Made by a program: the position numbers and the translations under genes. The notes under the pieces were generated by a model. That model saw nothing but the letters and a program-made list of their open reading frames with translations, did no database searches and was not told the origin of the DNA. 64,000 nucleotides of DNA from Phycisphaerae bacterium (GTDB taxonomy: Bacteria; Planctomycetota; Phycisphaerae; FEN-1346), in contig JAWODB010000350.1 of the NCBI GenBank assembly GCA_046483505.1, positions 218-64,217 of the forward strand, written 5' to 3'. Below are positions 25,874-60,157 of this stretch, piece after piece (within the stretch, counting starts at the first letter, position 1; every line of letters begins with the position of its first letter).

Positions 25874-26085
25874 AGTAGGACTCCGGTGTGGGTTCCCTTG
25901 GCCGACTCGCGGGCAATACCTTATCTATAGGCGGGCCCTCGGGGCGATGCAAGCGAAATCGATGCACGCCCGGCCCGCCAGAACGGCTAAAGCACGGCCG
26001 ACAACTGGCCGACATGCCCAACGACAGGCCCCGGCCGGGAGGGCCGCGGCCGACCGTCCACGAACCTCACGGAAAGGATACGACC

Positions 26086-31765: not shown

Positions 31766-31862
31766 GGCGCCCTCGGTGCCGGGCGCGGCAGCGCGCGAAC
31801 CTGCCCGCGACAGGCTGCCGTATTCTACCTCAGGTTTCCGCCCGACGCAATCGCGTTGCCCG

Positions 31863-32519: not shown

Positions 32520-32817
32520 CACAGACTCCTCTCGAAACGATCGGCGGGGACGACGGAGGCGTGACCGGAGCAGCCGGGAAGAGTCGCTCCCACGTCGGAT
32601 GTATCGGCGGTCGCGGGCGGACGGGTTGAACGATTCCGGGAACGGTTCGGGGCTTTCCGGGGCACGAGGCTTCAGAGTATACCTCAAGCGTCGAACGTGC
32701 AGGTTTCCGCCACTGGATTGACGCCGGCGCCGGGCGGGTTTATACTCGACAGGGTCATCGCGGTCGGTGGCAGGCGTTTCGCGCGATCCTTCCAGCACCC
32801 AGCACGGGGGACAGGTC

Positions 32818-36021: not shown

Positions 36022-37482
36022 CTAGCGTTCCCTTCTACGGCGGAGGAGGATGCGCGTCAAGCCCAGGGCCGCAAGGGCCAGCGTGGCCGGCTCGGGGACG
36101 ATCGTCAGGGGCACGGTGACCTGGTTGCCGCTGGTCAGGCTCGCCTGGTACGTCAGGGTAAGGTCGCCCTCGCCGAGTCCCAGGGCGGCGACGTTGCCGA
36201 GGCTGGCGTCGGTGAACGTTTGGGCGTTCTCCATGTCCAGGTAGCCGATCATGTTGTCGTGGTCGTCGAGGGCCGAGTCGGCGGAGAGGTTCAGGAACGA
36301 GAGGTCGGGGTCCTCGCCGGTCAGCAGCCCCTCGGCGTAGATGTAGAGGAACTTGATGCCGTCGGCGCTGAGGACGACCTCGCCGGTCGAGGGGTCGTAC
36401 GTTCCGGTGGCGGTGCCGGGCGGGATGCCGGCTCCGACGGGCATCGGGACGCCGCCGCCGGCCGGTCCACCGCCCATACCGGTGTAGTTACGGAGCAGTT
36501 CGCCGGCGTCAAGGAGATCGACGTCGCCGTCGGCGTTGAAGTCGCCCTGGCCCCAGACCATGCCGCTGCCGCCCATGCCGGTGTAGTTGGCGAGGAGGCT
36601 GCCGGCGTCAAGAAGGTCAACGTCGCCGTCGGTGTCGGCGTCGCCCCAGAGGAGGAAGTGCGTCGTATCGTACGCGAGCGGCCACATGCGGTAGCCGGCG
36701 TGGTACGGCTCGCCGGTGGTGTCTTCCTGGTCAAAGATGGCGGTGAGGTTGAACGTGCCGGGGGGCGGGAGGACGGTGTCGAAGTTGCCCACATCGCCGC
36801 AGAACATGTCGAGCGTCTGGCCGGAGGCGTCTGTGATGGGCACCGCGGTGCCGTTGGCCCATCCCGCACCGGGGTCGAGGAGGGAGACGCCCGTCAGTTG
36901 GCACCACTGGCCCTGCCAGCGTTCGCCGCCCGTGGCGCGGTCCATCACGCCGTCCCCGTCGCTGTCGGTGGTATCGAAATAGTTGCAGTTGGCAATGCTC
37001 GGAATGGGTTGCGGGTCCGGCATGCCAACGTGGCCCAGTAGCGTGACCTCGAACTGGTCGACCATGCCGTGGCGGCTGTTGCAGTTGACCTTGCCGTTGT
37101 GGTCGCCGACGTAGCCGGTGACCCGGACGTGGTCGCCGGGCGAGAGGCTGCCGGTGTACGGGGGATAGTCCGGGAAGAAGGTGCCGGCCCACAGGGCGAT
37201 GCCGCTCTGGTCGTACGGGGCGGGGTTCGTCGGCAGGGCCTGGACGTACACCTGCCACATGACGTTCGTGTCGAGCATATCGTCGGGGGCGTTCAGGCAG
37301 ACGCCCTCGAACGTGACGGGGGTGGCCGGGTTAAGGGCCCCGTGCACCCCTTTGCCGGCCGAGTCGACGGCCTCGAGGTCCCAGATCTCCTCCAGGGCGG
37401 CAGCCGGTACGGCCGCGGCGGCGAGGGCGAGGGCGGCAACGAACAGGCCCAGGATGCATCCGAGGCGGTGGGTGGACGACAT
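36022..37482 (-). CDS. Secreted PEP-CTERM-anchored protein with two dockerin-like Ca-binding repeats
   Basis: 486 aa with a signal peptide, the repeats DADTDGDVDLLDAGSLLANYTGMGG and DFNADGDVDLLDAGELLRNYTGMGG, and a C-terminal VPEPATLALAALGLTRILLRRRRER. Confidence 0.75.
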   Translation of the reverse strand: MSSTHRLGCILGLFVAALALAAAAVPAAALEEIWDLEAVDSAGKGVHGALNPATPVTFEGVCLNAPDDMLDTNVMWQVYVQALPTNPAPYDQSGIALWAGTFFPDYPPYTGSLSPGDHVRVTGYVGDHNGKVNCNSRHGMVDQFEVTLLGHVGMPDPQPIPSIANCNYFDTTDSDGDGVMDRATGGERWQGQWCQLTGVSLLDPGAGWANGTAVPITDASGQTLDMFCGDVGNFDTVLPPPGTFNLTAIFDQEDTTGEPYHAGYRMWPLAYDTTHFLLWGDADTDGDVDLLDAGSLLANYTGMGGSGMVWGQGDFNADGDVDLLDAGELLRNYTGMGGGPAGGGVPMPVGAGIPPGTATGTYDPSTGEVVLSADGIKFLYIYAEGLLTGEDPDLSFLNLSADSALDDHDNMIGYLDMENAQTFTDASLGNVAALGLGEGDLTLTYQASLTSGNQVTVPLTIVPEPATLALAALGLTRILLRRRRER

Positions 37483-46499: not shown

Positions 46500-47006
46500 G
46501 TGATGAAACGCGTGGCAACAAAAGGCTTCACCCTGGTTGAGATTCTGATCGTGGTCATCATTCTCGGTATTCTGGCGGCGATCGTCATCCCGCAGTTTAC
46601 CGAGGCCTCTGCCGAGGCGAGGGTCAGCAACCTCATGACCAACCTCCAGACCATTCGCAGCCAACTGCTGCTCTACAAGACCCAGCACCTCGAGAACTAC
46701 CCGGCCGATGCGGCGGGCGAAGGCGATGCCGAGTTCGAAGACGAGATGTGCAACTACAGCGACGAGGACGGCGTCACCCAGGCGACGCCCGACTCGGACC
46801 ATCCGTACGGCCCGTACCTGACTTCCGTGCCGATCAACCCCATGTCCAACGACAACACCGTTCGCGTGGTGCAGGACGGCGCCGCGGTGTTCGCGGCGCC
46901 GCAGGCCGACGGCGGGTGGTACTTCAACTCCGTCACCGGCGAGTTCCGCGCGGACCTGACCGACACTCACACCACGAGCGACGGCACGGCCTTGAACGAA
47001 CTGTAA
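46500..47006 (+). CDS. Type IV pilin / GspG-like major (pseudo)pilin
   Basis: 168 aa reading MMKRVATKGFTLVEILIVVIILGILAAIVIPQF (prepilin leader, G|F cleavage site, Glu5). GAAGGAG RBS upstream. A stem-loop plus T-run terminator lies downstream. Confidence 0.8.
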   Translation: MMKRVATKGFTLVEILIVVIILGILAAIVIPQFTEASAEARVSNLMTNLQTIRSQLLLYKTQHLENYPADAAGEGDAEFEDEMCNYSDEDGVTQATPDSDHPYGPYLTSVPINPMSNDNTVRVVQDGAAVFAAPQADGGWYFNSVTGEFRADLTDTHTTSDGTALNEL

Positions 47007-47068
47007 CACGCTGTGGGTGCGCAGCGGTGACCGCCAGCCTCTTCGTGTAGGGGCGAAGAGGCAGGGAA

Positions 47069-47114
47069 CCGGAGGCAGGGGCGCTTGGTGCGTCCGCTGC
47101 CTCCGGTCGTTTTA
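47069..47114 (+). terminator. Terminator downstream of the pilin gene
   Basis: A 10-bp stem CCGGAGGCAG / CTGCCTCCGG followed by TCGTTTTA. It is preceded by a second hairpin, GCCTCTTCG / CGAAGAGGC, at 47037-47062. Confidence 0.55.
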
Positions 47115-47126
47115 CAGGGCCGCACC

Positions 47127-47290
47127 CTTAGAGCCTATCCGGATAGCCCTCTGGCTTCGGCCGGCTGCGGCGGGCGCGAGCGGCGTCGGGCTGCATCGCC
47201 AACCGAGCGACGGGTTGCCTGCTTCGCCCTCCTTGCCGGCGGCCGCCTCGCTCGGCCTCGGGCCGACGAGGGGTCATCCGGATAGGCTCT
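47127..47290. repeat. Palindromic element family B, expanded copy (about 98 nt between the arms)
   Basis: The left arm at 47127-47162 and the right arm at 47261-47290 match the arms of the copy at 40448-40519. Confidence 0.8.
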
Positions 47291-47472
47291 GGGGGTCGGC
47301 GCGGTGACTGCCACCTCGGATTGCCGGAAGGACGCTGCGGGCGGACGGACGATGCCGGCACAAGCGGCAGCCGGCGGGTCCCAAGCGGCTGGAATTGGTT
47401 GGCTCCAAGTCGCCGAATGGCTGAAGCCCGGCTGGCGGCCGTGCCGATAAACGCTATGCCGTATCCCGAGAA

Positions 47473-47497
47473 CAGACGCACGGCGTCTGGTTTTTTT
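47473..47497 (+). terminator. Intrinsic terminator/attenuator 43 nt upstream of the pilus assembly operon
   Basis: Stem CAGACGC-ACG-GCGTCTG, then G and seven T residues (47491-47497). Confidence 0.55.
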
Positions 47498-47539
47498 CGG
47501 GCCATAGATGTCAAGTTAGGAAGGTTAGGAGGACTGGGA

Positions 47540-47851
47540 ATGCTCGAGCGGAGCCTCAGAAATATCGCCCACGGGCTGTTGCTGGTGGCGGCCATGCTGG
47601 CCCTCATCGCGGCCGGTCTCTGGTTTCGCGGGGCCGACCTGGAGCCCGAAGCCGTCGCGCGAGGCAAGCCCATCAGCACCAAAGACACCGGCATCCCGGA
47701 CTCCGGGCGCCAGCGGCAGATGATCGTGACGGAACTGAAGGCCGTGAACGGCCGTCTGAAGGCCATCGAGTCGGCCCTGCGCGACGGCGAGTACACGATC
47801 CAAACGAAGCCGCTGGCCGACGACGGTGCCGCGGCGGGAGGAAACCCGTGA
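47540..47851 (+). CDS. Hypothetical single-pass membrane protein
   Basis: ATG at 47540 after AGGAGGA, in ORF 47321..47851. It has one TM helix (HGLLLVAAMLALIAAGLWF) and a short coiled segment. The stop overlaps the next gene's GTG. Confidence 0.45.
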   Translation: MLERSLRNIAHGLLLVAAMLALIAAGLWFRGADLEPEAVARGKPISTKDTGIPDSGRQRQMIVTELKAVNGRLKAIESALRDGEYTIQTKPLADDGAAAGGNP

Positions 47852-48369
47852 ACGCCGACCGCGCCACAACACGCGGCGCCTTTACCCTGGTCGAACTGCT
47901 GATGGTGATCACGATTCTCATCATCGCCGCCGCCGTCGTCATTCCGAACATCGGTGCAGCGAGCGATACGCAGGCGATGAGCGCGGCCAGGATCGTGGCC
48001 GCCGACCTCGAGGTCACGCGCGACCTTGCCCTGAAGACCCAGCGGCCGCACACCATGCTCTTCAGCAGCGACTCGCAGTCTTACAAGGTGGTGTCGGACT
48101 ACGGCGGCGAGCCGTACACGTCGGCCGAAGCCATCGAGCACCCGGTCCTGGAGGGCCGCGCGTTCGAGGTCACCCTGGCCGAGCGCAACGGCATGAGCGC
48201 GGTCGTGGTGGCCAACGTTTCCTTCGGCGGCGACGCATACGTCACGTTCAACGAACTCGGCGAACCTTCCTCGTCCGGCTCGATCACGGTGGAGGCCGGC
48301 GACGTGCAGATCCGCGTGGCCGTCGCGGGCCTGACGGGAAGCGTCTCGACCATCCGGCTGGCGAACTGA
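47848..48369 (+). CDS. GspH/FimT-like minor pseudopilin
   Basis: 173 aa with GAFTLVELLMVITILIIAAAVVIPN followed by AARIVAADLEVTRDLAL, typical of the GspH family. Confidence 0.7.
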   Translation: MNADRATTRGAFTLVELLMVITILIIAAAVVIPNIGAASDTQAMSAARIVAADLEVTRDLALKTQRPHTMLFSSDSQSYKVVSDYGGEPYTSAEAIEHPVLEGRAFEVTLAERNGMSAVVVANVSFGGDAYVTFNELGEPSSSGSITVEAGDVQIRVAVAGLTGSVSTIRLAN

Positions 48370-48388: not shown

Positions 48389-49489
48389 GTGGCCCAGTTA
48401 CCGATTGGCGTCGACATTGGAAGCACGGCGGTCCGCATGCTCCAGGTGGGCGGCAGCGAGCGCGACCTGCGCGTGGTCGACGCCGGAAAGATCGCGATGC
48501 CCCGCGAGGCCACCGACCGGCCCGAGGGCCGACGCGACGCCGTCGCCGACGCCGTCCGTCGGCTCATGAAGGAGCGGCGGTTCCGCGGCCGCGAGGCCGT
48601 CATGGCCCTCGCGCCGGAGCAGGCGTCCGTGCGGAACATCCGGATGCCCGCCATGGACGCCGCCGAACTCGACGGGGCCGTTCACTGGGAGGCCCAGAAC
48701 AAGTTTCCGTTCGACACGGCGACGGCCGTCATCCAGTACCAGCGGGCGGGGCAGGTGACCCAGGGCAACGAGGCCCTGGAGGAGATCATCGTGTTTGCGG
48801 CCCCGCGGGCGGAGGTCGATGCCGCGATCGACCTGGCGTCCGAGGCGGGACTGACCCTCGTCAGCCTCGACGCCGAGCCGTGCACCATCTTCCGCGGCTT
48901 CGAGCGGTTTCTCCAGCGGCGCGAGGACGAGGAGGTGGCCAGTGTGATCGCCGACGTCGGCGCCCGCACGAAGGTGGTGATCTCCCGCGGCCGCGAAATC
49001 GTGTTCGTGAAGACGATTCCCATCGGCGGGGCCGTCTTCAACCGGGCGGTGGCCGAATGCCTGGACCTGGAACCGGCCGAGGCCGAGGCCCTGAGGCGAC
49101 GCATCGGCGGCCGTGCCGCCGAGGGCGAGATCGACGAGCACGACCGGGCCGCCAGGGCCGTGGCCGATGCCATCCGGCCGCACCTGGAGGACCTGGCCGA
49201 CGAAATCGGCCTCTGTCTGCGGTATTACAGTGTGACGTTCCGCGCGCCCCGGCCCGAGACACTCCAGTTGACGGGCGGCGAGGCGCATAACCCGACGATC
49301 CCGGCGGCCCTCGGCAACCGCCTCGGCATGCGCGCCGAGGTAGCCGACCCGTTCCGGAGGGTCCGGACCGACCACCTCGACCCCGTCCTGGACCGGCGTG
49401 GCATCCGGGCGGAGTGGGCCACGGCGTTCGGACTGAGCCTGAAAGGTTTCCACCTGGACAGGGTGGCGTCCGGGCAATACGCGGCCTAG
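48389..49489 (+). CDS. pilM: Type IV pilus assembly protein PilM (actin-like)
   Basis: 366 aa with PIGVDIGSTAVRMLQV and an ASKHA fold pattern, followed by PilN/PilO-like genes. Confidence 0.85.
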   Translation: MAQLPIGVDIGSTAVRMLQVGGSERDLRVVDAGKIAMPREATDRPEGRRDAVADAVRRLMKERRFRGREAVMALAPEQASVRNIRMPAMDAAELDGAVHWEAQNKFPFDTATAVIQYQRAGQVTQGNEALEEIIVFAAPRAEVDAAIDLASEAGLTLVSLDAEPCTIFRGFERFLQRREDEEVASVIADVGARTKVVISRGREIVFVKTIPIGGAVFNRAVAECLDLEPAEAEALRRRIGGRAAEGEIDEHDRAARAVADAIRPHLEDLADEIGLCLRYYSVTFRAPRPETLQLTGGEAHNPTIPAALGNRLGMRAEVADPFRRVRTDHLDPVLDRRGIRAEWATAFGLSLKGFHLDRVASGQYAA

Positions 49490-49504: not shown

Positions 49505-50089
49505 GTGCGCGAACTCGAATTCCTCCCGGAAGAGTACCTCCGGGCCCGGTTCCAGCGGCGAATCGGGTTCATCCGGTCGTGGCTGCTGCTGGCCATCGGG
49601 CTGGCCATGGTCCTGTACAGCATGCAGATGGGCACGTGGGTCCGCGACGCGCGGGCCGAACTGCGGGCCCTTCAGGGCACGGGCACCGCCGTCAAGGGCG
49701 ATGTCGAGAAGGTTCGTCGCCTCCGCGAAGAGGCCCGGACGTACAGCGAGCGGATCGAAGTGGCCGAGGCGCTCCAGCCCCGCACCACCGTCACGGCGGT
49801 GCTGGCCGACCTCGTCGCGGCGCTGCCCGAGGCGGTGTGCGTCGAAAGGCTGGAGGTCCTCTGGCCGGCGGACGATACGGCGGAGCCCGCCACCGTCCGG
49901 CTGGAAGGGGCGGCCGGCAGCGAGAAACAGGTGACCCTGGCGGTGGCCCGTCTCGACGCGTCGCCGCGCTTCGGCCGAACGATCCTGGTCGAATCGCGCC
50001 TGGCGGAGGAGGCGCCCGCTGGCGGTCGCACGTTCGCCCTGGAGACGCGCGTCATCGGCGTGGACGCAGAGCAGGGAGAGTCGCCGTGA
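49505..50089 (+). CDS. PilN-like fimbrial assembly protein
   Basis: 194 aa with N-terminal LEFLPEEYLRARFQRR, one TM helix and a coiled region. It sits directly after pilM. Confidence 0.65.
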   Translation: MRELEFLPEEYLRARFQRRIGFIRSWLLLAIGLAMVLYSMQMGTWVRDARAELRALQGTGTAVKGDVEKVRRLREEARTYSERIEVAEALQPRTTVTAVLADLVAALPEAVCVERLEVLWPADDTAEPATVRLEGAAGSEKQVTLAVARLDASPRFGRTILVESRLAEEAPAGGRTFALETRVIGVDAEQGESP

Positions 50090-50733
50090 CGGATGCCCAA
50101 CCGACGCCCCGGCGTTTTGCGATCGACCGCCAGCAACTGCTGATCCTGCTGGTGGCCTCGGTCATGGTGGGCAGTTTCGCCCTGTTCATCCTCTGGCCGA
50201 GACACCGCGAACTGGCCGACCTCGATCACGCCGTCAGCCAGCAGCGTTGGCTGCTGAGCCAGCGGGTGGCGGCCAGCCAGGAAGGCATGCTCGTCTCGGC
50301 CCGCATCCCGGGTCTGCGGAAGGCCCAGGGCCGGATCGAGCGGTGCCTCCCGCGCGGCCCGGACGTGGCCGGTTTCCTGCAGATGATGAACGCGGCCCTG
50401 GCCGAGATGCCCGCCGTCAGCCACGAGGTCACGCGGTCCGGCGAGGCCGAGAGCGGGTCCAGGCCGTCGGTGCCGCTGTGCCTGCGCCTTCGCGGGCCGT
50501 TCGAGGAGGTCTACCGCAGCCTGGGGGCGATCGAGCGGCTGGAGCGGCTCAGCCGCTTTCGCCGCGTCCGCTTCACCCGGACCGGGGCCAACGGCGAGGT
50601 GCTGGCCGAGGCCCAACTGGTTATCTACTACCTGCCCGACGGGCAGGCCGTCGATGAATACCCGCCCCGGGGCGCGACGACGGCCGAGGCGCGACCGGAA
50701 CCCTCCAGGACACAGGAGCACCAGGCGTCATGA
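50086..50733 (+). CDS. PilO-like pilus assembly protein
   Basis: The GTG at 50086 overlaps the pilN-like stop, in frame of ORF 49414..50733. It has one TM helix, then a coiled coil and a ferredoxin-like C-terminus (LCLRLRGPFEEVYRSLGAIERL). Confidence 0.55.
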   Translation: MTDAQPTPRRFAIDRQQLLILLVASVMVGSFALFILWPRHRELADLDHAVSQQRWLLSQRVAASQEGMLVSARIPGLRKAQGRIERCLPRGPDVAGFLQMMNAALAEMPAVSHEVTRSGEAESGSRPSVPLCLRLRGPFEEVYRSLGAIERLERLSRFRRVRFTRTGANGEVLAEAQLVIYYLPDGQAVDEYPPRGATTAEARPEPSRTQEHQAS

Positions 50734-51344
50734 GTGCGGCAGCGGCATTGCGACGCATCGCGACGTTCGTCCAGACCTGGCTCGTCGGGGCCGGTGCCGG
50801 CGGCCGGCGGACGAGCCAGGGCCGGTGGCTTCACGTCGGCCTGACCGTCACGCTGCTGGCGGCCGGCGTGGCCGCCTGGGCCGTGGCGCTCATCCAGCCC
50901 TGGAAGGCGAAGGCGGCCGACCGGGGCATCGTGGCCGTCCGGGGGCAGCCGGCGCCGCAGCCGGTTCGCGAGGCGGCCGAGGAGGCTGAGCAATTGTTCG
51001 AGCCGGCGACGCCGACGGTGCTGCCCGTCCTGGCGCGGAACCCGTTCGCGACGCCCGGCCTGGCCGAGGCGACGGACGCGGCGCCCCGGCCGACGTCTGC
51101 GCCGCCGGAGGAGCCGCCTTGCCCGGGCGGCGGTGCGGCGACGGCGAAACATGTGGCCGAGACCGCGCGGGACCTGCAACTGAAAGCGACCGTCCGCTCC
51201 ACGAGGGGTGAGCGGTGGGTCGTCATTAACGACAGGGTGTATCGCGAGGGGGATGAGGTGGCCGGCCTGACCCTGGTGGAGATCGGCGAGACGTGCGCCA
51301 CGCTCCGCCGCGGCGGGGTCACCTGTGTGATCCGAATGGACTAA
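50730..51344 (+). CDS. PilP/GspC-like protein (hypothetical)
   Basis: 204 aa with one TM helix, a Pro-rich linker and a C-terminal beta domain (LQLKATVRSTRGERWVVINDRVYREGDEVAGLTLVEIGETCATL) resembling PilP/GspC HR domains. It sits between the pilO-like gene and the secretin. Confidence 0.4.
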   Translation: MSAAAALRRIATFVQTWLVGAGAGGRRTSQGRWLHVGLTVTLLAAGVAAWAVALIQPWKAKAADRGIVAVRGQPAPQPVREAAEEAEQLFEPATPTVLPVLARNPFATPGLAEATDAAPRPTSAPPEEPPCPGGGAATAKHVAETARDLQLKATVRSTRGERWVVINDRVYREGDEVAGLTLVEIGETCATLRRGGVTCVIRMD

Positions 51345-51358
51345 GGAGGGAGATCGTC

Positions 51359-53320
51359 ATGGGGACGCAGAGACCCCCACAACCCGTACACTGGTGCCGC
51401 GTGATGCTGGCGGCGGCCGTCGTGCTGGCCGCGGCTGCCGCCGTGGCGGCCGCCGAGGAAGCCGCCGAGGCGGACCCGGAGACGACGGCAGCGTCGGAGC
51501 AGCCCCCGCCCGCTGTGGGCGACGCGCCGGCCGCTGACGCCGCCGGCAAGACACAGGCGGCGCCGACGGCCGCCGGCAACATCGAACTGCACGTCAAGAA
51601 CGACGACCTCACCAACGTCCTGGAACTGCTCTCGCAGCAGTACCGGCTGAATATTGTGGCCAGCAAGGGCGCCACGGGCAAGGTGACGGCCGATCTCTAT
51701 GACGTGACGGTCGAGGAGGCGCTCGACGCCATCTGCCGGGCCGCCGACCTCGGCTGGAGGCGCGAGAACGGCGTCATCTACATCTACACCGCCCAGCAAC
51801 TCAAGGCCATGGCCGAGGACGAGTCGCGCCTCGAGACCGAGGTCTTCGAGTTGAACTGGCTTTCCGCCCAGGAGGCCGTCAACCTCCTGGACCCGCTCAA
51901 GTCGCAGCAGGGCAGCGTGACCGGCAGCCAGGATCCCGAAACGGGTATCCCCTCCGGCGCGAGCGGCGGGACGGGCGGCAACTCGCTGTGCCTCTCCGAC
52001 ACCGTCGTGGCCCGCGACTTCCCGGAGAACCTCGAGCGCATGCGCGAGGTCATCCGCAGGATGGACCGCCGGCCGCGGCAGGTCCTCGTCGAGGCCACCA
52101 TCCTCCGGGCCACGCTCAACGACAACACCAGCCTCGGCATCGACTTCAACGTGCTGGCGGGCATCGATTTCCGCGATCTCTCCGACACGAACGTCCCCAT
52201 CCGGGACGTGACGGCCAACATGGATCCCACGAACCCGGGCGCGCCCGCCATGACCGTCCCCGCCGAGCAGAAACCGTTCGGCAACGTCAGCCAGGTGGGC
52301 TTCGCCGGTCCCGGCCCGGGCTTGAACATCGGCGTCATGACTAACGGCGTCTCGCTGTTCGTCCGGGCGATGGAGGCGGTCACGGACACCACCGTCATCA
52401 GCAACCCGAAGGTCCTGGCCCTGAACAAGCAGCGGGCCGAGGTCATCGTCGGCGAACGCCTCGGGTACCTGACGACCACCGTGACCGAGACCAGCGCCAT
52501 CCAGGCGGTGGAGTTCATCGAGAGCGGCACGCAGTTGATCTTCCGGCCGTTCATCGGCGACGACGGGTACGTGCGGATGGAAATCCACCCCGAGCTCTCC
52601 TCCGGCGAAATCGTCAACGACCTGCCCCGCGAGGATACCACCGAGGTCACCTGCAACGTCATGGTCAAGGACGGGCACACCATCGTCATCGGCTGCCTGT
52701 TCGACGAGGACGTTTCGATTGCCCGCAGCCAGGTGCCCGGCCTGGGCAACATTCCGGGCCTGGGCTGGCTGTTCCGCAGCAAGACGGACCAGACCATCCG
52801 CAACGAAGTCATCATCCTCCTGACGCCGCACATCATCGAGCACGAGGAGGACGCCGCCGCCTTGGGCGAAAGCGTCATGTCCGACGTGCGCCGCCGAGCG
52901 CTCGGCATCCGCGAGGGGTTCAGTTTCTTCACCCGCGAGCGGATCACCATCGGCTACGTCCAGGCCGCTCAGGAGGCCTGGGCACGCTACCAACAGACCG
53001 GCCGCGACTCGGACCTCAACGAGGCCTGCTGGAACGTCCAGATCGCCACCGACGTGGCCCCGAACAACCTCGACGCCCTCCGCCTGAAGGACAAGGTCCT
53101 GACCGCCAAGAACGGCGAGCCCTACACGCCGCCGGACGTCACCATCTGGGACAGCATCCGCGAGCGGATGCGGATGATCGACACGGCGCGCGGCGTGGCG
53201 ATGCCCCGCAAGGCCAAGTTCCGCGTGCCCGAGAAGACGCCTCCTTCCGGCTCCCGCCCGACAGCCGACGAGACGCCCGAGACGCCCGAACAAACGAAGG
53301 AGGACCCCGATGCGAACTAA
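51359..53320 (+). CDS. Secretin (PilQ/GspD family) with C-terminal extension
   Basis: ATG at 51359 after AAGGAGGG, in ORF 51293..53320. It has a signal peptide, an STN/N0-like domain (NIELHVKNDDLTNVLELLSQQYRLNIV) and a secretin domain (QVLVEATILRATLND..LGIDF.., VPGLGNIPGLGWLFRS). Confidence 0.85.
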   Translation: MGTQRPPQPVHWCRVMLAAAVVLAAAAAVAAAEEAAEADPETTAASEQPPPAVGDAPAADAAGKTQAAPTAAGNIELHVKNDDLTNVLELLSQQYRLNIVASKGATGKVTADLYDVTVEEALDAICRAADLGWRRENGVIYIYTAQQLKAMAEDESRLETEVFELNWLSAQEAVNLLDPLKSQQGSVTGSQDPETGIPSGASGGTGGNSLCLSDTVVARDFPENLERMREVIRRMDRRPRQVLVEATILRATLNDNTSLGIDFNVLAGIDFRDLSDTNVPIRDVTANMDPTNPGAPAMTVPAEQKPFGNVSQVGFAGPGPGLNIGVMTNGVSLFVRAMEAVTDTTVISNPKVLALNKQRAEVIVGERLGYLTTTVTETSAIQAVEFIESGTQLIFRPFIGDDGYVRMEIHPELSSGEIVNDLPREDTTEVTCNVMVKDGHTIVIGCLFDEDVSIARSQVPGLGNIPGLGWLFRSKTDQTIRNEVIILLTPHIIEHEEDAAALGESVMSDVRRRALGIREGFSFFTRERITIGYVQAAQEAWARYQQTGRDSDLNEACWNVQIATDVAPNNLDALRLKDKVLTAKNGEPYTPPDVTIWDSIRERMRMIDTARGVAMPRKAKFRVPEKTPPSGSRPTADETPETPEQTKEDPDAN

Positions 53321-54422
53321 ACGATTCCTGGTCGCCGCCGCCGTCGTCGCGCTCTTCCTGGCGGCCGGATGCGACAACCACATGGCCGCCAAACGCGGCG
53401 AGGCCGAGCATCGCTGGGCGGCGTCCCGCGCCGAGATGGTCACCAACATGGCCCAGCATTCGTACGAGCGGGGCAACTTCGCCCGGGCACGCGAGCAACT
53501 CGACCCGATCATCCGGTCCGGCACCCCGTACGCCCCGGCCTACGTGCTGATGGCCCGTCTGGCGGCCGACCAGGGCGACCTGGACGAGGCCCGCAACTAC
53601 GCCTGCTCCGCCACCCAGGTGGACGGCGCCTCCGCCGAGGCCTGGTACGTCCTCGGCACGGTGGAGCAGACGCTCGGCCACCGCCAGAAGGCGCTGACCG
53701 CCTTCGGCAAGGCGGCCGGAGAGGAACCCTTCAATCCGCGCCACGTCGTGGCCGAGGCCGAGATGTTCGTCGCCATCGGCGAGGTCGAGGCCGCCGAGCG
53801 CACCCTGGCCGCCGCCTGCGACCAGATGCCCGGCAGCGCCGAGGTGCACGCCTCCTACGGCGCCGTCCTCTCGCGCCTCGGCCGATACGAGGCGGCGGCC
53901 GGCCAGTACCGGATTGCGATGCGCCTGGACCCCGAGAACATGCTCCCCAAGGAGCGTCTGGCCGTCGCCCTCTTCCGCAGCGGGGCCTACGCCGAGGCCG
54001 AGCCGATGCTGGCCGACCTCCAGCGGTCCGAGCCGGAGTTCGCCACCGGCTGGATGTGCCAGATGCGGGCCGATTGCCTCATGGCCCTGCGACGGCCGGA
54101 GCCCGCCCGGACCCTGTACGCCCGCGCGGTCGAGGCCTCGCCGAAGGCCGTTGCGCCGCGCGTCGGCCTGGCCCGGTGCGCCATCCTCGAGGACCGGCTG
54201 CCGGAAGCCCGCCGGCACCTGGAGCAGGTCCTGAAGGAAAGCCCCGGCCACACGGAGGCGAACGGCCTGCTGGGGTACGTGCTGGCGGCCACGGGTCGGC
54301 CGGCGGAGGCCGTCCCGCACCTGAAACTGCCCATGCAGGACCCGGCCTGCACGGGCCGGGAAACGATACGTCACCTTCTTGCCTGCGCGGAGGCATCGTC
54401 GGCGGTCGCACCCGCACCGTGA
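53310..54422 (+). CDS. TPR-repeat lipoprotein (PilF/PilW-like)
   Basis: 370 aa with a lipobox (LFLAAGCD) and multiple TPR units. It overlaps the secretin stop. Confidence 0.7.
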   Translation: MRTKRFLVAAAVVALFLAAGCDNHMAAKRGEAEHRWAASRAEMVTNMAQHSYERGNFARAREQLDPIIRSGTPYAPAYVLMARLAADQGDLDEARNYACSATQVDGASAEAWYVLGTVEQTLGHRQKALTAFGKAAGEEPFNPRHVVAEAEMFVAIGEVEAAERTLAAACDQMPGSAEVHASYGAVLSRLGRYEAAAGQYRIAMRLDPENMLPKERLAVALFRSGAYAEAEPMLADLQRSEPEFATGWMCQMRADCLMALRRPEPARTLYARAVEASPKAVAPRVGLARCAILEDRLPEARRHLEQVLKESPGHTEANGLLGYVLAATGRPAEAVPHLKLPMQDPACTGRETIRHLLACAEASSAVAPAP

Positions 54423-54564: not shown

Positions 54565-56010
54565 GTGATTGAATTGCGGCGCGTGCTGGCCGTCATTCTG
54601 CTCTTCATCGGCGTTGGATTCGGACTCCATCTGCTGCTGGACCCCGTGCGCGACGCCGGCCGCAGCGCCGCCGACAAGGCCTTGATCCTGGGGGCCGGCA
54701 TGGCCCTGGCCGTCCTCGGAACCATTGGCGGGTACCTCATCGCCCGCATTCCCAAAGAGCGGATCGGAAACGTCGCCGACCACCTCGAGACCCTTGTCCG
54801 GCGCGGCACGGTGGGCATGGCGGTGGGCGAGGCGGATGCCGATGCCCTCGGCCGCCTCGGACACGCCATCAACCGGTACCTGGCCTTCGTCAAGGACGAG
54901 GTCGAGCAGTCGCGCATGGCCATCAAGGAACGCCAGATCCAGGTCAAGGTCCTGGAGGCGGAGAAGCGGCACATCGAGGCCGTCATCCATGCCATCAGCG
55001 ACGGCGTTCTGGTGATGGACGCCTTCGGCGACCTCGTGCTGACGAACGAGGCGGCGAAGACCATCTTCGGGTTCCAGTTCGAGCCCGGCCGGCGCATGCC
55101 CATCGAGGAAGCCATCGCCGACGAGCCGTTCCTGGCCCTGCTCCGCGAGATGCAGGACCAGGGTTCCTTCGTGCCGCACCGGACCGCCGAGTGGGTCCAG
55201 GGCGAGGGCGACGAGGCACGCGCCTACCGCGTCATCCTGAACACGGTCTTCGAGGGGCCGAAACGCGAACGGGTCAGCGGTGTCGTGGCCGTCCTTCACG
55301 ACGTGACCCGCGAGAGGGAAATCGCGCGGACCAAGAGCGACTTCGTCTCGTCCGTTTCCCACGAACTGAAGGCCCCCGTCGCCAGCATCCGCGCCTACGC
55401 CGAGATGCTCGTCGACGGTGAAACGTCCGGACCGGAGGAGGCCCGCGAGTTCCTGAACATCATCGTGGCCGAGACGGAACGCCTCGGCCGCCTCATCGAG
55501 AAGGTGCTCAACCTCAGCCGGCTGGAATCGGGTCTCATCCCGGCCAACAAGACGGACCTGGCGGTGACCGAACTGCTCCGCGAGGTGGCGGAAGTCGTCT
55601 CGCCGCAAGCCGCCGAGAAACGCATCCGCCTGGAGGCGGACCTGGCGCCCGTCTTCTTCCGGGTGCACGGCGACCGCGACATGCTGTACCAGGCGATCCT
55701 CAACGTGGTCTCCAACGCCGTCAAGTACACGGAGGAGGCGGGGCGCGTGTCCATCTCGACCTACCTGGCGGACGGCTCCGTCGTGGTCGACGTGGCCGAT
55801 ACCGGTGTCGGCATCGCCCCCGAGGAACTGGACCGGGTGTTCGAGAAGTTCTACCGCTCGAAACGGTCGGCGCAAAGCGCCGGCGGCACGGGACTGGGTC
55901 TCCCGCTGGTCAAACACATTGTCGAGACGATCCACGGGGGACGCGTGGCGGTCGAAAGCGAGGTCGGCAGGGGGTCGGTGTTCCGGCTGTACCTGCCGGC
56001 GGTTCGCTGA
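54565..56010 (+). CDS. Membrane sensor histidine kinase (2TM-HAMP-PAS-HisKA-HATPase)
   Basis: GTG at 54565 after GGAGGTGG, in ORF 54379..56010. H-box FVSSVSHELKAPV, N-box LNVVSNAVKY, G-boxes DTGVGI and GTGLGL. Confidence 0.85.
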   Translation: MIELRRVLAVILLFIGVGFGLHLLLDPVRDAGRSAADKALILGAGMALAVLGTIGGYLIARIPKERIGNVADHLETLVRRGTVGMAVGEADADALGRLGHAINRYLAFVKDEVEQSRMAIKERQIQVKVLEAEKRHIEAVIHAISDGVLVMDAFGDLVLTNEAAKTIFGFQFEPGRRMPIEEAIADEPFLALLREMQDQGSFVPHRTAEWVQGEGDEARAYRVILNTVFEGPKRERVSGVVAVLHDVTREREIARTKSDFVSSVSHELKAPVASIRAYAEMLVDGETSGPEEAREFLNIIVAETERLGRLIEKVLNLSRLESGLIPANKTDLAVTELLREVAEVVSPQAAEKRIRLEADLAPVFFRVHGDRDMLYQAILNVVSNAVKYTEEAGRVSISTYLADGSVVVDVADTGVGIAPEELDRVFEKFYRSKRSAQSAGGTGLGLPLVKHIVETIHGGRVAVESEVGRGSVFRLYLPAVR

Positions 56011-56033: not shown

Positions 56034-56411
56034 ATGGCCTGGAAGGTTCTCGTGGCCGACGACGAGCCATGCATCACGACCATCGTCTCGAAGAAACTCC
56101 GCAACGCGGGGTTCGAGGTTTGCGTGGCAAGGGACGGGCAGGAGGCCTTCGACATGGCCCTGGCCGAGCGCCCGGACTTCCTCGTGACCGACCTCCAGAT
56201 GCCGCTGATGAGCGGCCTGGAACTCGTCGCCCGCCTGACGGCCGAACTGGACGACCCCGTTCCCGCGCTGCTGCTGACGGCCAAGGGATTCGAACTGGAG
56301 AACGAGAGCCTCGACGCGCTGCCCATCTTGATGGTCATGACGAAACCCTTCAGCCCCCGCGAACTGCTCGACAACGTCCGCGAGGCCCTGGGCGCCGCCG
56401 CCCCGACCTGA
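56034..56411 (+). CDS. Single-domain response regulator (CheY-like receiver)
   Basis: 125 aa with VLVADDE, phospho-acceptor context LVTDLQMP, LLLTAKG and MTKPF. Confidence 0.9.
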   Translation: MAWKVLVADDEPCITTIVSKKLRNAGFEVCVARDGQEAFDMALAERPDFLVTDLQMPLMSGLELVARLTAELDDPVPALLLTAKGFELENESLDALPILMVMTKPFSPRELLDNVREALGAAAPT

Positions 56412-56419
56412 GGCAACGG

Positions 56420-57958
56420 ATGATTTCGCCCTCGTCAACGTGTCCGCCGAAGCCGGCCCTCGCCATCCCGGACGGGCTGGTGGACGCGCTGCGCGACCGG
56501 ACGGGCGTGGCGGTCCGTTTCTTCGACGCCGACGGCGCCCCGCTGCCCGCCGGCGACGGCGCGGACGCCGCCGGAACCGCGCCGGACCCTTCCCACGGCG
56601 AACCGCTTGCCCGAGTGGTGAGGGAGGCCGTCGAGGCCGGCGAAGACCGGGTCGAGCCCACCCCGGACGGCCTGGCGGCGGCGTGGCCGATACGGCAGCA
56701 CGGCCGGCCGGCGGTCGTGGCCGCCGCCGTCCTGACGGACGTCGGTCCCGGCGAGGCGTCGGTGGGGCGGCGGTTGCTGGCGGGCGTCGGCGAGGCCGTC
56801 CGCGCGCGGTTCGCCCTGGCCGAGGCCGCCAACCAGTGCGATTCCCTCTCCGGGGCGCTGGCCCAGAGTTTCGAAGAGATCACCCTGCTGCACAACGTGG
56901 GCGAGATTCTGCGGGTCACGCGGCCCATTCCGGGGCTGCTGGAGTACGTGTGTTCGGAATTGCGCGAGACGACGGGCGCCGAGGCCGCCGCCGCCTGCCT
57001 GCCCGACGAGGACGGTGGCGAGCCGCTCCTCGTCACGGCGGGCGAACCCCCCGTGGCCGAGGCCGACCTGCCGGGCCTCCTGGCCGACCTTCTGGACGGG
57101 GCGCAGGGGTCGGCCGCCATCATCAACTACTGTCAGCAGGAGCCGGCCCTGGCGCGGCTGTCGGGGGCGCTCGAGCGGGTGGCCGTCGTCCCGCTGCCCC
57201 TCGGCGAGGGGGACGTCGGCGCGGTCGCGATCTTCAACCGGCCGCGCATGGAGTTCGGCAGCCCCGACGTCAAACTCGTGCGGTCCAGCGCCAACGCGAC
57301 GGCCGTCTTCATCGAGAACCGCCGCCTCTTCCGCGACCTCCACACCATGATGCTCGACCTGGTGCGGGCGCTGGTCTCGAGCGTCGACGCCAAGGACCCG
57401 TACACGTGCGGCCACAGCGAGCGGGTCGCCATCCTGTGCCGCGAACTGGCCCGCGAACTCGGCCTCACCGACGAGGAAATCGAGCAGGCCTACATGGCGG
57501 GCCTGCTGCACGACATCGGCAAGATTGGGACGCCGGAGGCGATCCTCCGCAAGGAGGGGGCGCTGCGGCCCGAGGAACGGCGGGTCATCGGCGAACACCC
57601 GAGTATCGGCGGCCACATCCTGGAGGGCATCAAGCAGTTGCAGGAGGTCCGCGAGGCCGTCGTCCATCATCACGAGCGGCTCGACGGCTCCGGGTACCCG
57701 CAGGGGGTCTCGGGTGACGACCTCCCGATGCTGGCCCGCATCGTCGGCCTCGCAGACTCGTTCGACGCGATGACGAGCACGCGGCCGTACCGCGAGATGA
57801 TGCCCCTGGAGGCGGTCGAGCGGGAAATCGAGCGGCACACGGGCTCGCAGTTCGATCCCCAAGTGGCGGAGGCGTTCAAGCGGATCGACAAGCAGAACCT
57901 GATGGAGCAGTTCGCCGCCCATCCACGCTCCGCCTGTACGGCGGATGCCGGGAGGTAA
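56420..57958 (+). CDS. GAF-domain HD-GYP phosphodiesterase (c-di-GMP-specific family)
   Basis: ATG at 56420 in ORF 55805..57958. About 150 aa of N-terminal sequence is unassigned, followed by a GAF-like region. HD-GYP motifs: GHSERVA, LLHDIGKIG, HHERLDGSGYP. Confidence 0.85.
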   Translation: MISPSSTCPPKPALAIPDGLVDALRDRTGVAVRFFDADGAPLPAGDGADAAGTAPDPSHGEPLARVVREAVEAGEDRVEPTPDGLAAAWPIRQHGRPAVVAAAVLTDVGPGEASVGRRLLAGVGEAVRARFALAEAANQCDSLSGALAQSFEEITLLHNVGEILRVTRPIPGLLEYVCSELRETTGAEAAAACLPDEDGGEPLLVTAGEPPVAEADLPGLLADLLDGAQGSAAIINYCQQEPALARLSGALERVAVVPLPLGEGDVGAVAIFNRPRMEFGSPDVKLVRSSANATAVFIENRRLFRDLHTMMLDLVRALVSSVDAKDPYTCGHSERVAILCRELARELGLTDEEIEQAYMAGLLHDIGKIGTPEAILRKEGALRPEERRVIGEHPSIGGHILEGIKQLQEVREAVVHHHERLDGSGYPQGVSGDDLPMLARIVGLADSFDAMTSTRPYREMMPLEAVEREIERHTGSQFDPQVAEAFKRIDKQNLMEQFAAHPRSACTADAGR

Positions 57959-57963
57959 CTCGC

Positions 57964-58299
57964 ATGGCGACGACGGCGGATGCCTACGGCAGCATGATGG
58001 TCCTGTCGGTGGAGCCGGCGCTGACGGCGCGGGAGGGCAACGACTTCCGCGACGTCGCCGGCGAGCAGATTCGTTCGGGGGCCCGCTGGTTTATTCTCGA
58101 CCTGTCGGGCGTCGGCTACTTCGACAGTGCGGGCCTGGAAACCCTCGCCTGGTTCCAGGACCAGATGGAGGCGTCGGGCGGCGACGCGAAGGTGGCCGGC
58201 CTCAAGGGGCTGGCCCGCCAGACGTTCGAGATCGTCCGCTTCGACAGGAAGTTCGAGGTCTACGACTCCGTGCACGAGGCCGTCAAAAGTTTCCATTGA
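57964..58299 (+). CDS. STAS-domain protein (anti-sigma-factor-antagonist family)
   Basis: 111 aa with FILDLSGVGYFDSAGLETL, including the conserved phosphorylatable Ser context (DSAG). Confidence 0.8.
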   Translation: MATTADAYGSMMVLSVEPALTAREGNDFRDVAGEQIRSGARWFILDLSGVGYFDSAGLETLAWFQDQMEASGGDAKVAGLKGLARQTFEIVRFDRKFEVYDSVHEAVKSFH

Positions 58300-58396: not shown

Positions 58397-60157
58397 ATGA
58401 CAGCGACCAACGAAACCCCGCGGCGGGCCCGGCTGGGCGATCTGCTCATCGCCCGCCAGGCCATCAACCACGACCAACTCCAGCACGCGCTGGAGGTGCA
58501 GCAGAACGGCCAGCAGGACCGGCTCGTCGGCGAAATCCTCGTCGACCTCGGCTACGCCACCCAGGAGCAGGTCCTCTCGGCCGTCGCGGAGGCCTGCGGC
58601 GTGCCGTTCGTCCGGCTTGTGCCGCAACTCGTCGACCCGGCCGTCCGCGGGGTCCTCCCGGCCGCATTCATCCAGAAGCACTGCGTGCTGCCGCTCTTCC
58701 GCGTTCGCGACGTGTTGACCGTGGCGGTCTCGGAGCCGTCGAACGTCTTCCTGGTGGACGAGATCGCCCACGCGGCCGGTCTCAGCGTCCAGGTGGTGGC
58801 CGCCACGGCGGACAACATCTACCGGATGCTGGACGAAACGCGACCGGACGGCAAAGAGGTGGCCCAGGTCGTGGACGAGCCCGGCCTCGGCGTCTCGGTG
58901 GCCGACGACAGTCTGCTGCCGGACGACTACGAGACGATGTACGGCAACTGGCCGGCCGAGAAGGTGGCCGGCCTGCTCATCCGCGAGGCGGTCCGCGCCC
59001 GGGCGACGGCCATCCACCTGGAGCCGGACGAAAAGGTGCTGCGAATCCGGTTCCGGATCGACGGCGTGCTGCACGTGGTGATGCGTCCGCCCGCCCGCCT
59101 GGCCGAAAGGCTCGCCGCCGCCTTTCACGAGATGCTGGGCGCCACGACGGCATCCGCCAAGGTGCCGGACTACCACCGCAGCGCGCGGCTCCTGGTGCAG
59201 GGCCGGCCGGTCCAGTTGCACGTGACGGGGTTGGGCGGGGCGTTCGGCCGGCGGACCGTCATCCGCCTGGTCTGCGAGGAGGACGCCCAGAAACCCCTCG
59301 AGAAACTCGGGGCCGACTTCCGCCTCCTGGACGACTACCGCGACCTCCTCGCCGAGCCCCGCGGGCTCATCCTCCTGGCCGGGCCCCGCGAGAGCGGCGT
59401 CACAACCACCCTCTACAGCACCATCGGGGCGCTGGACCCGATTCGCCTCAACGTCTGCACGTTCGAGTCGGCCGTGACGTTCGCCATGCCGGGAGTCAAT
59501 CAGTTTTCGCCGGCCACCTGCGGGGAGCGGGACGCCGCCAGAGTGCTGCGCCGTCTGCTTTACCAGCAGCCGGACGTCCTGGCGCTGGACGGGACGCTGG
59601 ACGGGGCGGTGGCGCCGTGGGTGCTCGAAGCCGCCCTGGACGGCTGCCTGGTCGTGGCGGACCTCCGCGGCCGCGACGCCGCCGACGCCGTCGCGCGGCT
59701 GGCGAGCCAGGTGTCACCGGACCTGTTGGCCAAGGCGCTGCGGGGGGTGATGGCGCAGCGGCTGGTCCGGACGGTGTGCCTCCACTGCCGCACCAGCCAC
59801 GAGCCGTCGGCGGCCCTGCGGCGGCGCGTCGGGGAGGCCTTCGGCTCGGTCGAGGAATACGTCAAGGGACGGGGCTGCTCGAACTGCTACCAGACGGGCT
59901 TCTACGGCCGCATCGGCCTGTACGAACTCGTCACGTTCGATACGGCCCTCGCCGAGACCGTCCGCCGCAACGAGGGGGTGGAAGTGCTGCGGCGGGCGTT
60001 CGCCGAGGACGACCGGCCGACGATCTGGCGCGACGGGATCAACAAGGTCCGGGCGGGGATCACGTCGCTGGAGGAGGTGATGCGGGTCCTGGCGGGATGT
60101 CCGGGCGGGCTGCATGCGCCGCAGGCGACGGCCGAGGTGTTTTCGCGCGCCGAATGA
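58397..60157 (+). CDS. PilB/GspE-family protein with degenerate ATPase motifs (predicted pseudo-ATPase)
   Basis: ATG at 58397 in ORF 58127..60157, 586 aa. The T2SSE_N-like N-terminus reads RLGDLLIARQAINHDQLQHALEVQ..RLVGEILVDLGYATQEQVLSAVAE. The core aligns to GspE (IHLEPDEKVLRIRFRIDGVL; AQRLVRTVCLHC..CSNC). Walker A is GPRESGVTT, the Asp box is TFESAV, Walker B is VLALDGTLD and the His box is LVVADLRGRDA. Confidence 0.8.
   Translation: MTATNETPRRARLGDLLIARQAINHDQLQHALEVQQNGQQDRLVGEILVDLGYATQEQVLSAVAEACGVPFVRLVPQLVDPAVRGVLPAAFIQKHCVLPLFRVRDVLTVAVSEPSNVFLVDEIAHAAGLSVQVVAATADNIYRMLDETRPDGKEVAQVVDEPGLGVSVADDSLLPDDYETMYGNWPAEKVAGLLIREAVRARATAIHLEPDEKVLRIRFRIDGVLHVVMRPPARLAERLAAAFHEMLGATTASAKVPDYHRSARLLVQGRPVQLHVTGLGGAFGRRTVIRLVCEEDAQKPLEKLGADFRLLDDYRDLLAEPRGLILLAGPRESGVTTTLYSTIGALDPIRLNVCTFESAVTFAMPGVNQFSPATCGERDAARVLRRLLYQQPDVLALDGTLDGAVAPWVLEAALDGCLVVADLRGRDAADAVARLASQVSPDLLAKALRGVMAQRLVRTVCLHCRTSHEPSAALRRRVGEAFGSVEEYVKGRGCSNCYQTGFYGRIGLYELVTFDTALAETVRRNEGVEVLRRAFAEDDRPTIWRDGINKVRAGITSLEEVMRVLAGCPGGLHAPQATAEVFSRAE

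Follow-up and report, generated by a model that had tools for sequence, protein, structure and literature searches.

The stretch of DNA analysed here (64,000 nucleotides from a Phycisphaerae bacterium, contig JAWODB010000350.1; referred to below as the window) carries a co-directional cluster of type IVa pilus and signalling genes. The cluster opens with prepilin genes, and its last gene, on the forward strand at 58397..60157, reads through without a stop codon as a protein of 586 amino acids (aa). On the basis of its translation and of Pfam, NCBIfam, HMMER, MAFFT and AlphaFold2 (AF2) analyses, we describe this protein as a catalytically degenerate orthologue of the pilus extension ATPase PilB and call it dPilB. 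The ATG at 58397 was taken as its start because the N-termini and the length of 586 aa found in the family agree with it, and the alternative starts TTG at 58376 and GTG at 58385 were rejected. We are highly confident that dPilB is a conserved, selected and catalytically inactive PilB orthologue, and we propose that it has turned from a motor into a receptor for cyclic di-GMP (c-di-GMP).

Loss of the catalytic motifs in a conserved PilB family

The original prediction had taken dPilB to be a homologue of PilB and GspE along its entire length. Pfam, HMMER and Foldseek agree with this, and dPilB is confirmed as a full-length protein of the PilB/GspE fold. Pfam finds in it the MshEN/T2SSE_N domain PF05157 (residues 68-151, 58.3 bits) and the T2SSE domain PF00437 (residues 186-563, 224.6 bits), and HMMER aligns it colinearly with the Geobacter PilB structures 5zfr, 5tsg and 6olj over residues 9-565 (E ~1e-84). 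It has the domain order of canonical PilB, GspE, MshE and PilF (PF00437, TIGR02538/TIGR02533), that is MshEN, N1, N2, a RecA-like C-terminal domain (CTD) and a Cys4 region. The c-di-GMP motif pair occupies residues 12-66, N1 (PF05157) residues 68-151, N2 residues 186-305, the degenerate RecA-like core residues 306-455, and the Cys4 zinc region with the C-terminus residues 456-565. An AF2 model built on the family alignment reached a mean predicted local distance difference test score (pLDDT) of 82, with values mostly above 90 in the CTD. The best PDB matches of this model were the PilB/PilF proteins of Geobacter metallireducens and Thermus, with G. metallireducens PilB (5tsh/5tsg) at the top of the Foldseek matches (TM-score normalised to the target 0.83-0.85), and the GspE-GspL structure 4PHT was also among them. 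Alignment to profiles and structures (HMMER to 5zfr/5tsg; AF2 with Foldseek) thus confirms the positions of the motifs as well as the fold. The NCBIfam equivalog models for PilB and GspE gave only about 304 bits with dPilB, against cutoffs of 630-676. For TIGR02538 (304 bits, cutoff 675.65), canonical relatives of dPilB also miss the cutoff with 597-640 bits, and the signal therefore lies in the halved score, not in the missed cutoff.

The motif registers were set by the HMMER alignment to 5zfr/5tsg together with a MAFFT alignment that included 33 canonical relatives. In dPilB, all residues for ATP binding and hydrolysis have been lost. The former Walker A motif or P-loop (residues 329-336, 59381..59404, + strand) reads GPRESGVT in place of GPTGSGKT, such that position 335, the lysine, is now valine; this substitution and its coordinates had been given correctly (GPRESGVTT, 59381-59407). 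Across the family described below, the position is occupied by V, L, T, A or G and never by Lys. A pattern scan of the whole protein found no alternative P-loop ([AG]xxxxGK[ST]), and an intact GxxGxGK[ST], which would have spoken for a misplaced motif, is likewise not present elsewhere in dPilB. In the former Walker B motif (DVLALDGTLD, residues 393-402, 59573..59602, + strand; HMMER, MAFFT, conservation), M[IV]GE[IV]RD has become ALDGTLD. Gly stands in the place of the catalytic Glu, where the family has G, C, D, N or R, and the Gly before it has given way to an Asp, D398, which is invariant. The former His box (residues 421-428, 59657..59680, + strand) has changed from STLHTNDA to ADLRGRDA, in which the Asp alone is kept. 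The Asp box has changed from EDPVE to ESAVT (AEDPVEF to FESAVTF), with its first Glu, E357, as the only residue retained, and this Glu is invariant in the family. The second arginine finger, (D/Y)(L/F)RVS, reads QLHVT in dPilB; most family members have His here as well, and a few have Arg or Gln.

The earlier statement that all catalytic motifs are altered is thus supported, with the correction that the degenerate Asp box retains E357 and had been read (as FESAVT) one position out of register. The reading of the PQDGR loop as DYHRSAR also needs qualification. One Arg of this loop aligns with the canonical Arg of Geobacter PilB, and the loop is variable and of low pLDDT. Furthermore, the catalytically intact Phycisphaerae PilBs (P0088-P0120) read RRLPQDGG(I/S)HV where other PilBs have PQDGR, which means that even active members of this lineage have no first "arginine finger". 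The tetracysteine zinc motif (C461, C464, C494 and C497), correctly recognised before as being kept, is invariant in 63 family sequences.

A comparison of 84 family sequences with 33 canonical ones showed that 108 positions are conserved in both groups, that 76 canonically conserved positions have been lost in the family, and that 63 positions are conserved in the family only, including R331 in the P-loop and D398 in Walker B. The old pocket thus carries new invariant or near-invariant residues and has not drifted, and VLALD398 resembles a classical hhhhD Walker B. This raises the question whether dPilB is still an enzyme, in which the remodelled pocket (R331, E357, D398, D427) binds ATP or another ligand and turns it over in a non-canonical manner. 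However, the catalytic Glu, the His box, most of the Asp box and the arginine fingers are gone, and no other P-loop replaces the old one. We regard a non-canonical enzyme as very improbable; the former Lys position and the neighbouring P-loop position 332 vary within the family.

Among 5.8 billion proteins searched, approximately 87 clusters (90% identity) are 56-87% identical to dPilB, and all of them come from Phycisphaerae or Planctomycetota metagenome assemblies (JGI, ENA, NCBI, Logan). Assemblies with dPilB include GCA_964397995.1, GCA_964526295.1, CAZNYC01, DATKUU01, DATLBA01 and JAPLML01, and GCA_030123715.1 has an intermediate form. After this family there is a sharp break, followed by canonical PilB/GspE proteins at 38-40% identity. 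In a library clustered at 50% identity, a single full-length sequence stands for the whole family with 812 bits, well ahead of the match that comes next with 388 bits. The full-length open reading frame (ORF) is intact in all of the family clusters, and the Walker A Lys, the Walker B Glu, the His box and most of the Asp box are absent in every one of them, whereas they are intact in 33/33 canonical neighbours. Sequencing error, which had been named as a possible source of the motif loss, is thus excluded, as is chance, because the same losses recur in about 87 clusters from independent assemblies.

The ratio of nonsynonymous to synonymous substitution rates (dN/dS) was obtained from a single pair, dPilB and its 87%-identical orthologue. 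More distant pairs (57-61% identity) were discarded, since their dS is saturated or biased at a GC content of third codon positions (GC3) of about 0.9. The pair gave a dN/dS of 0.14 overall, 0.086 in the RecA-like core, 0.086-0.11 across N2/CTD and 0.053 in N1. The overall value is the lowest of ten operon genes compared, among them those for the STAS protein (0.15), the histidine kinase (0.16), PilM (0.18), the secretin (0.29) and a PilP-like protein (0.43). Given that every catalytic motif is broken and that the adjacent pilC and pilT genes are gone (see below), dPilB might be taken for a decaying relic or pseudogene, or for a sequencing or assembly artefact. This explanation is refuted by the intact ORFs in about 87 clusters, the lowest dN/dS of the operon and the 63 family-specific positions; the confident AF2 model also speaks against it, and we assign it practically no probability. 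The motif degeneracy is a selected state, not an artefact or a pseudogene. Automated annotation overlooks it: NCBI labels the family members P0009, P0022, P0067 and P0073 as "ATPase, T2SS/T4P/T4SS family" or "Flp pilus assembly complex ATPase component TadA", and the JGI name for the family is "type IV pilus assembly protein PilB".

The pilus operon of dPilB and the loss of pilC and pilT

The original prediction saw in dPilB a paralogue that had been placed behind a STAS protein and an HD-GYP enzyme. Instead, the canonical PilBs with 38-40% identity to dPilB occupy the equivalent slot of the Phycisphaerae operon pilMNOPQ-TPR-HK-RR-HD-GYP-STAS-PilB (TPR, tetratricopeptide repeat protein; HK, histidine kinase; RR, response regulator). 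In locus L086, the canonical P0089 is found in the order HK-RR-HD-GYP-STAS-PilB-PilT-PilC; in L092, the operon of P0098 runs from pilM through STAS-PilB-PilC; and L093, with P0096, has the same arrangement as L092, PilB and then PilC. Since other Phycisphaerae encode its nearest canonical relatives within this operon, dPilB is, by position, the orthologue of the extension ATPase that belongs to the operon and not an added paralogue, and the order pilM-N-O-P-secretin-TPR-HK-RR-HD-GYP-STAS-PilB is ancestral in this class. Thus, dPilB has the same predicted fold and the same operon position as active Phycisphaerae PilBs, but is without the Walker A Lys, the Walker B Glu, the Asp box, the His box, the second arginine finger and a downstream pilC/pilT. 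As to phylogenetic distribution and synteny, the family is confined to Phycisphaerae/Planctomycetota assemblies and its operon is conserved; degeneracy is graded in related lineages and does not mark a separate paralogue.

In the window, the cluster begins with a major-pilin-like gene with an N_methyl motif (46500-47006, + strand, as are all genes of the cluster) and a GspH/FimT-like minor pilin gene (47848-48369). Between the two lies an ORF of 176 aa (47321-47851) with one hydrophobic membrane-spanning stretch, as judged by eye, and no Pfam match. The interval 47006-47848 has no clear GC3 coding signal, and the ORF could represent a pilus accessory gene that has so far escaped recognition, or else a spacer without coding function. 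These genes are followed by pilM (48389-49489), pilN (49505-50089), a pilO-like gene (50086-50733), a pilP/T2SSB-like gene (50730-51344) and a gene for a PilQ-type secretin with STN, Secretin_N and Secretin domains in Pfam (51293..53320). The next gene encodes a TPR-repeat protein (53310..54422), which is found directly behind the secretin in all orthologous operons.

Signalling genes fill the space between these structural genes and dPilB. A PAS-HisKA-HATPase_c histidine kinase (54565..56010; Pfam), whose start was placed at a GTG that yields 481 aa, the length of its orthologues, is followed by a single-domain CheY-like response regulator (56034..56411; Pfam) in which the acidic pocket, the phospho-acceptor Asp, the Thr and the Lys are all conserved. 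The GAF-HD-GYP protein (56420..57958; PF13487, 141.6 bits) is a predicted c-di-GMP phosphodiesterase with complete catalytic motifs (LLHDIGK, HHHERLDGSGYP and FDAMTSTRPY; HHHE and GSGYP are intact). The STAS-domain protein (57964..58299; 111 aa; PF01740, 49.1 bits) precedes dPilB. The Ser of its DS(A/R/K/D)G motif (residue 53, in a DSAG motif, in the protein of the window) is kept in 8/9 operons compared, and Pfam found neither an RsbW/SpoIIAB-like kinase nor a PP2C phosphatase for it in the operon. The order of the 11-gene operon from pilM to dPilB is identical in every family locus fetched, at 57-88% identity. One of these loci, L006 (CAZNYC010000011.1), is titled "uncultured Anaerolineales bacterium", yet has the full Phycisphaerae-type operon and a dPilB that is 88% identical to that of the window; this bin is probably mislabelled or contaminated. 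In its general form, pilMNOPQ-TPR-HK-CheY-like RR-(GAF)HD-GYP-STAS-pilB(-pilT)-pilC, the conserved operon joins two-component, c-di-GMP and STAS signalling to the type IVa pilus motor. In the literature searched, we found no description of a link between STAS proteins and PilB or of a STAS-HD-GYP-PilB operon.

The trait that tracks with PilB degeneracy is the loss of pilC and pilT from the locus. Neither gene is found in any of 12 independent degenerate loci, whereas pilC is present in 3/3 canonical operon loci (Fisher p=0.002), and pilC lies within 10 kb in 68/79 unrelated PilB loci as compared to 0/12 degenerate ones (p=4e-9). The gene just downstream of the degenerate PilB is nearly always on the opposite strand in the 12 loci. 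Tblastn searches of the window and of all dPilB flanks for canonical PilB, PilT and PilC found none.

It could be that dPilB co-assembles or alternates with an active PilB encoded elsewhere in the genome and thereby tunes pilus extension by c-di-GMP. Non-catalytic subunits in mixed motors are known from the alpha subunits of F1, and the dependence of PilU on PilT is comparable. The hexamer-forming N2/CTD fold of dPilB is kept, with high model confidence and a low dN/dS, and the pilin genes and pilMNOPQ are under purifying selection, which implies a functional machine and a continued need for a motor. However, neither the window nor the flanks that were fetched contain a second T2SSE/T2SSF gene, the inter-subunit arginine fingers have been lost, and the best matches include no canonical PilB with the amino-acid composition of this lineage, though this last test is a weak one. 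We consider such a mixed motor unlikely. Candidates for a same-lineage canonical PilB that had been selected by amino-acid composition (high-GARP) proved to belong to Armatimonadota, Bacillota and similar groups. Proximity of NCBI accessions did not link dPilB to any canonical PilB.

A second possibility is that polymerisation has been lost altogether, such that PilMNOPQ and dPilB form a gated secretin conduit or a static signalling or adhesion complex, with dPilB as its c-di-GMP-sensing cytoplasmic ring. In line with this, each of the three nearest canonical relatives that were examined is the PilB of its operon and has pilC beside it, and the degenerated gene may therefore be the main type IVa pilus motor of the lineage; pilC/pilT are kept in none of the 12 degenerate loci, and the remainder of the operon is conserved. 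On the other hand, prepilin genes have been kept beside pilM, which would be pointless without assembly, and we know of no type IV pilus-like system that can do without a platform protein and an ATPase. A basal body without a motor appears even less likely than a mixed motor. The main distinction between the two is the presence or absence of another pilB-pilC pair in the genome.

Elsewhere in the window, a stand-alone PilZ-domain protein (30521-30955, - strand; PF07238, 62 bits) is a second predicted c-di-GMP receptor. A protein with a DisA_N-type diadenylate cyclase domain (513-1565, - strand) and a 7TM-HD, PgpH-like protein (9581-12088, - strand) lie within 10 kb; they are likely a pair for the synthesis and degradation of c-di-AMP, and are found amid the housekeeping genes folP, ftsH, recO and ybeY. 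Three further ORFs have no Pfam match (36022-37479, - strand; 31428-32561, + strand; 25888-26388, + strand), of which only the first and the last pass the GC3 coding filter.

The N-terminal c-di-GMP motifs and a graded series of PilB forms

The N-terminus of dPilB carries two tandem MshEN-type motifs of 24 residues (58430..58594, + strand), motif I from R12 to Q35 and motif II from L43 to A66, as defined by the NCBIfam model NF053729 and per-column conservation. A pair of such motifs had been proposed before, and the model supports it with 46.4 bits over residues 12-65 (cutoff 38), although motif II is better read from L43-V-G45. Other family members score 47.6-60.9 bits, and R12, L13, G14, L17, L28, L32, Q35, L43, G45, L48 and G52 are 89-100% conserved in the family, with G52 as the Gly at position 10 of motif II. 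Motif II (L-[LIV]-G-E-I-L-V-D-L-G-Y-A...) starts with Leu and is without the final Gln. The same is true of motif II in the GSPII-B domain of Thermus PilF, which binds c-di-GMP at 6 nM and gave rise to the extended MshEN consensus (R/K/L)LGxx[LVI][LVI]xxG[LVI][LVI]xxxxLxxxLxxQ (PMC11731258). The motif pair of dPilB fits this consensus. Like the N-terminus of V. cholerae MshE (5HTL) and Thermus thermophilus PilF GSPII-B (8PDK and related entries), dPilB thus has the tandem pair, but its motifs are separated by a spacer of 7 residues, not 5. Judging by these motifs, it probably binds c-di-GMP.

The two halves of the protein have evolved differently. In the c-di-GMP motif region, dPilB is 39-44% identical to its canonical cousins, and in N1 51-55%, where the cousins are 47-57% identical to each other. 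In the N2 and CTD core, the identity to the cousins drops to 36-39%, whereas that between cousins is 69-75%. The sensor and docking half of dPilB diverges at a normal rate, as in active PilBs, and the motor half has undergone a burst of change and then came under constraint again. Since N1 of GspE binds the PilM-like GspL, as seen in the GspE-GspL structure 4PHT, N1 of dPilB would still dock on PilM.

Partly degenerate proteins, taken from the representatives of 50%-identity clusters and more distant than the dPilB family, lie between the canonical and the fully degenerate state. P0126 has a nearly intact Walker A (GPAGSGKTA), GD for GE in Walker B and the His box ALHTADA. P0139 reads GPAGSGKRT and GDLPD. 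In P0122 and P0143, the Walker A Lys is retained (GPR[RH]SGKTT), but neither Walker B nor the His box has survived. The contexts of three partly degenerate PilBs show each of them behind RR-HD-GYP-STAS, and pilC follows in 0/3. The TIGR02538 score falls from the canonical 597-640 bits to 502 in P0126, 392 in P0139 and 269 in P0122, with 280-304 in the dPilB family, and the c-di-GMP motif model stays steady at 46-61 bits across canonical, intermediate and dPilB-family proteins. In a neighbour-joining tree, the dPilB family has 100% bootstrap support and is joined to P0122/P0143 at 86%, or 51% if the motif columns are left out. The monophyly of all degenerate PilBs is not robust, and we have dropped a single origin as a claim, because its support of 69% goes down to 24% upon removal of the motif columns.

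The locus of P0126 (JGI 3300047160) has the order (501 aa)-RR-GAF/HD-GYP-STAS-PilB-like without adjoining pilMNOPQ; its neighbours are an ABC transporter to one side and, to the other, a receiver and a flagellin gene. It follows that the five-gene signalling module can occur apart from the genes for the pilus structure.

A pseudo-ATPase as a possible c-di-GMP receptor

Taken together, we suggest that the type IVa extension ATPase encoded in the ancestral Phycisphaerae pilus operon has turned, in one uncultured lineage, into dPilB, a c-di-GMP-binding pseudo-ATPase that docks at the pilus base or signals without ATP hydrolysis. We put the probability of this reading at roughly 0.6. Because the sensing and docking domains have been kept under strong selection, dPilB is probably a signal receptor and not a motor. 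That it acts at the base of the pilus has, in our estimate, slightly less than an even chance. The regulatory or scaffolding role that had been envisaged from the start, be it as a c-di-GMP receptor or as an adaptor or inhibitor of the true motor, is plausible.

In such a scheme, the co-transcribed histidine kinase, CheY-like regulator and GAF-HD-GYP phosphodiesterase would set the c-di-GMP level locally, and the STAS protein might be a further partner, with the HK/RR/HD-GYP module setting or relaying the signal. Through motifs I and II, dPilB would bind c-di-GMP and turn the signal into a conformational or binding output without turnover of ATP. As one candidate for this output, dPilB could be a placeholder or adaptor, gated by c-di-GMP and docked on the PilM/N/O platform, that would control the access of a motor encoded elsewhere. 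Alternatively, dPilB could signal to a downstream pathway, as PilB of Myxococcus does for exopolysaccharide. It would then resemble a natural, permanently nucleotide-free PilB with c-di-GMP as its sole remaining ligand.

Several points weigh against this reading. Position 10 of motif I, which is Gly in 55/63 family members (P0001, for example), is Gln (Q21) in dPilB and thereby differs from known MshEN receptors; the substitution had been noted before and is indeed present, but it is nearly private to this protein. The binding of c-di-GMP is inferred from the motifs, dPilB may bind nucleotide without hydrolysing it, and the tree that links the degenerate forms is a crude, distance-based neighbour-joining tree of moderate support. 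No other T2SSE or T2SSF gene lies within the 64-kb window. Finally, the STAS/HD-GYP neighbourhood, which the original prediction took as a pointer to a regulatory role, is ancestral and common to active PilBs. It therefore provides no specific evidence for a non-catalytic role and is not specific to a new one.

The idea that a PilB can signal without catalysis has precedents. In Myxococcus xanthus, the control of exopolysaccharide by PilB requires neither hydrolysis nor pili, and the nucleotide-free form of this PilB is the proposed signalling state (PMC5544727). Binding of c-di-GMP and of ADP are allosterically coupled in PilB (PMC6957770). In the PilBs of M. xanthus and Chloracidobacterium, c-di-GMP binds to the N-terminus, and dPilB resembles a natural version of the engineered ATPase-deficient variant. 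However, these PilBs are bifunctional and catalytically competent, and their inactive forms are laboratory mutants that are less stable in vivo, whereas the inactive state of dPilB has arisen in evolution, is stably maintained by selection and goes along with a remodelled pocket.

In known cases, MshEN domains regulate an active ATPase or a glycosyltransferase (NfrB). The ATPase module that is attached to the MshEN domain of dPilB, by contrast, is dead. TadZ/CpaE of Tad pili are also derived from P-loop proteins and serve in localisation or scaffolding instead of energy supply, but they belong to a ParA/MinD-like superfamily; unlike dPilB, they are not of the PilB/GspE family, are not motor orthologues and have no c-di-GMP domain. 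FimX, with its degenerate GGDEF and EAL domains, and PilZ-FimX-PilB complexes are treated as type IV pilus regulators in a review (PMC11656802). The principle there is the same as the one suggested for dPilB, namely that an enzyme domain loses catalysis and stays a c-di-GMP-responsive pilus regulator. In the case of FimX, however, the dead domain is that of a c-di-GMP-metabolising enzyme and the motor is active, whereas dPilB is a dead motor with a separate, intact c-di-GMP site. Judged by its sequence, dPilB thus has the features of an MshEN-type receptor and lacks both the catalytic residues and the pilC linkage of a PilB motor.

Full-text literature searches gave nothing on point for a naturally dead or pseudo-ATPase PilB or for MshEN in Planctomycetes. 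Term searches of a 2024 review of PilB regulation, which devotes a section to multiple PilB homologues, likewise gave no inactive PilB. In the literature searched, no paper describes the combination of features found here, in agreement with what had been stated at the outset. To all appearances, dPilB is a previously unreported, well-supported pseudoenzyme with an informative evolutionary series, in uncultured organisms.

A more far-reaching scenario is doubtful at present. According to it, the motor of the main type IVa pilus has become a c-di-GMP-sensing pseudo-ATPase throughout the lineage, which has shed the linked platform and retraction genes, but has kept the pilins and PilMNOPQ. The basal body would then have a gated, dead "clutch" ring for a motor supplied in trans, or it would have no motor and be repurposed as an envelope-spanning signalling or secretion device. 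If this is true, the intermediates in sister lineages record the stepwise turn of a molecular motor into a receptor.

PilB-type ATPases are regarded as the engines that type IV pili, type II secretion and competence systems cannot do without, and genome annotation labels every homologue as an ATPase. In this context, a naturally dead and selected PilB with an intact c-di-GMP domain would directly support the idea from Myxococcus that PilB signalling is separable from catalysis. Structural studies of the signalling or docked state would also gain a stable PilB that is free of nucleotide. Furthermore, the natural series from an exchange of Glu to Asp only, through forms in which the Lys is kept and the Glu and His are lost, to those that have lost all of them would be useful for studying how a pseudoenzyme originates.

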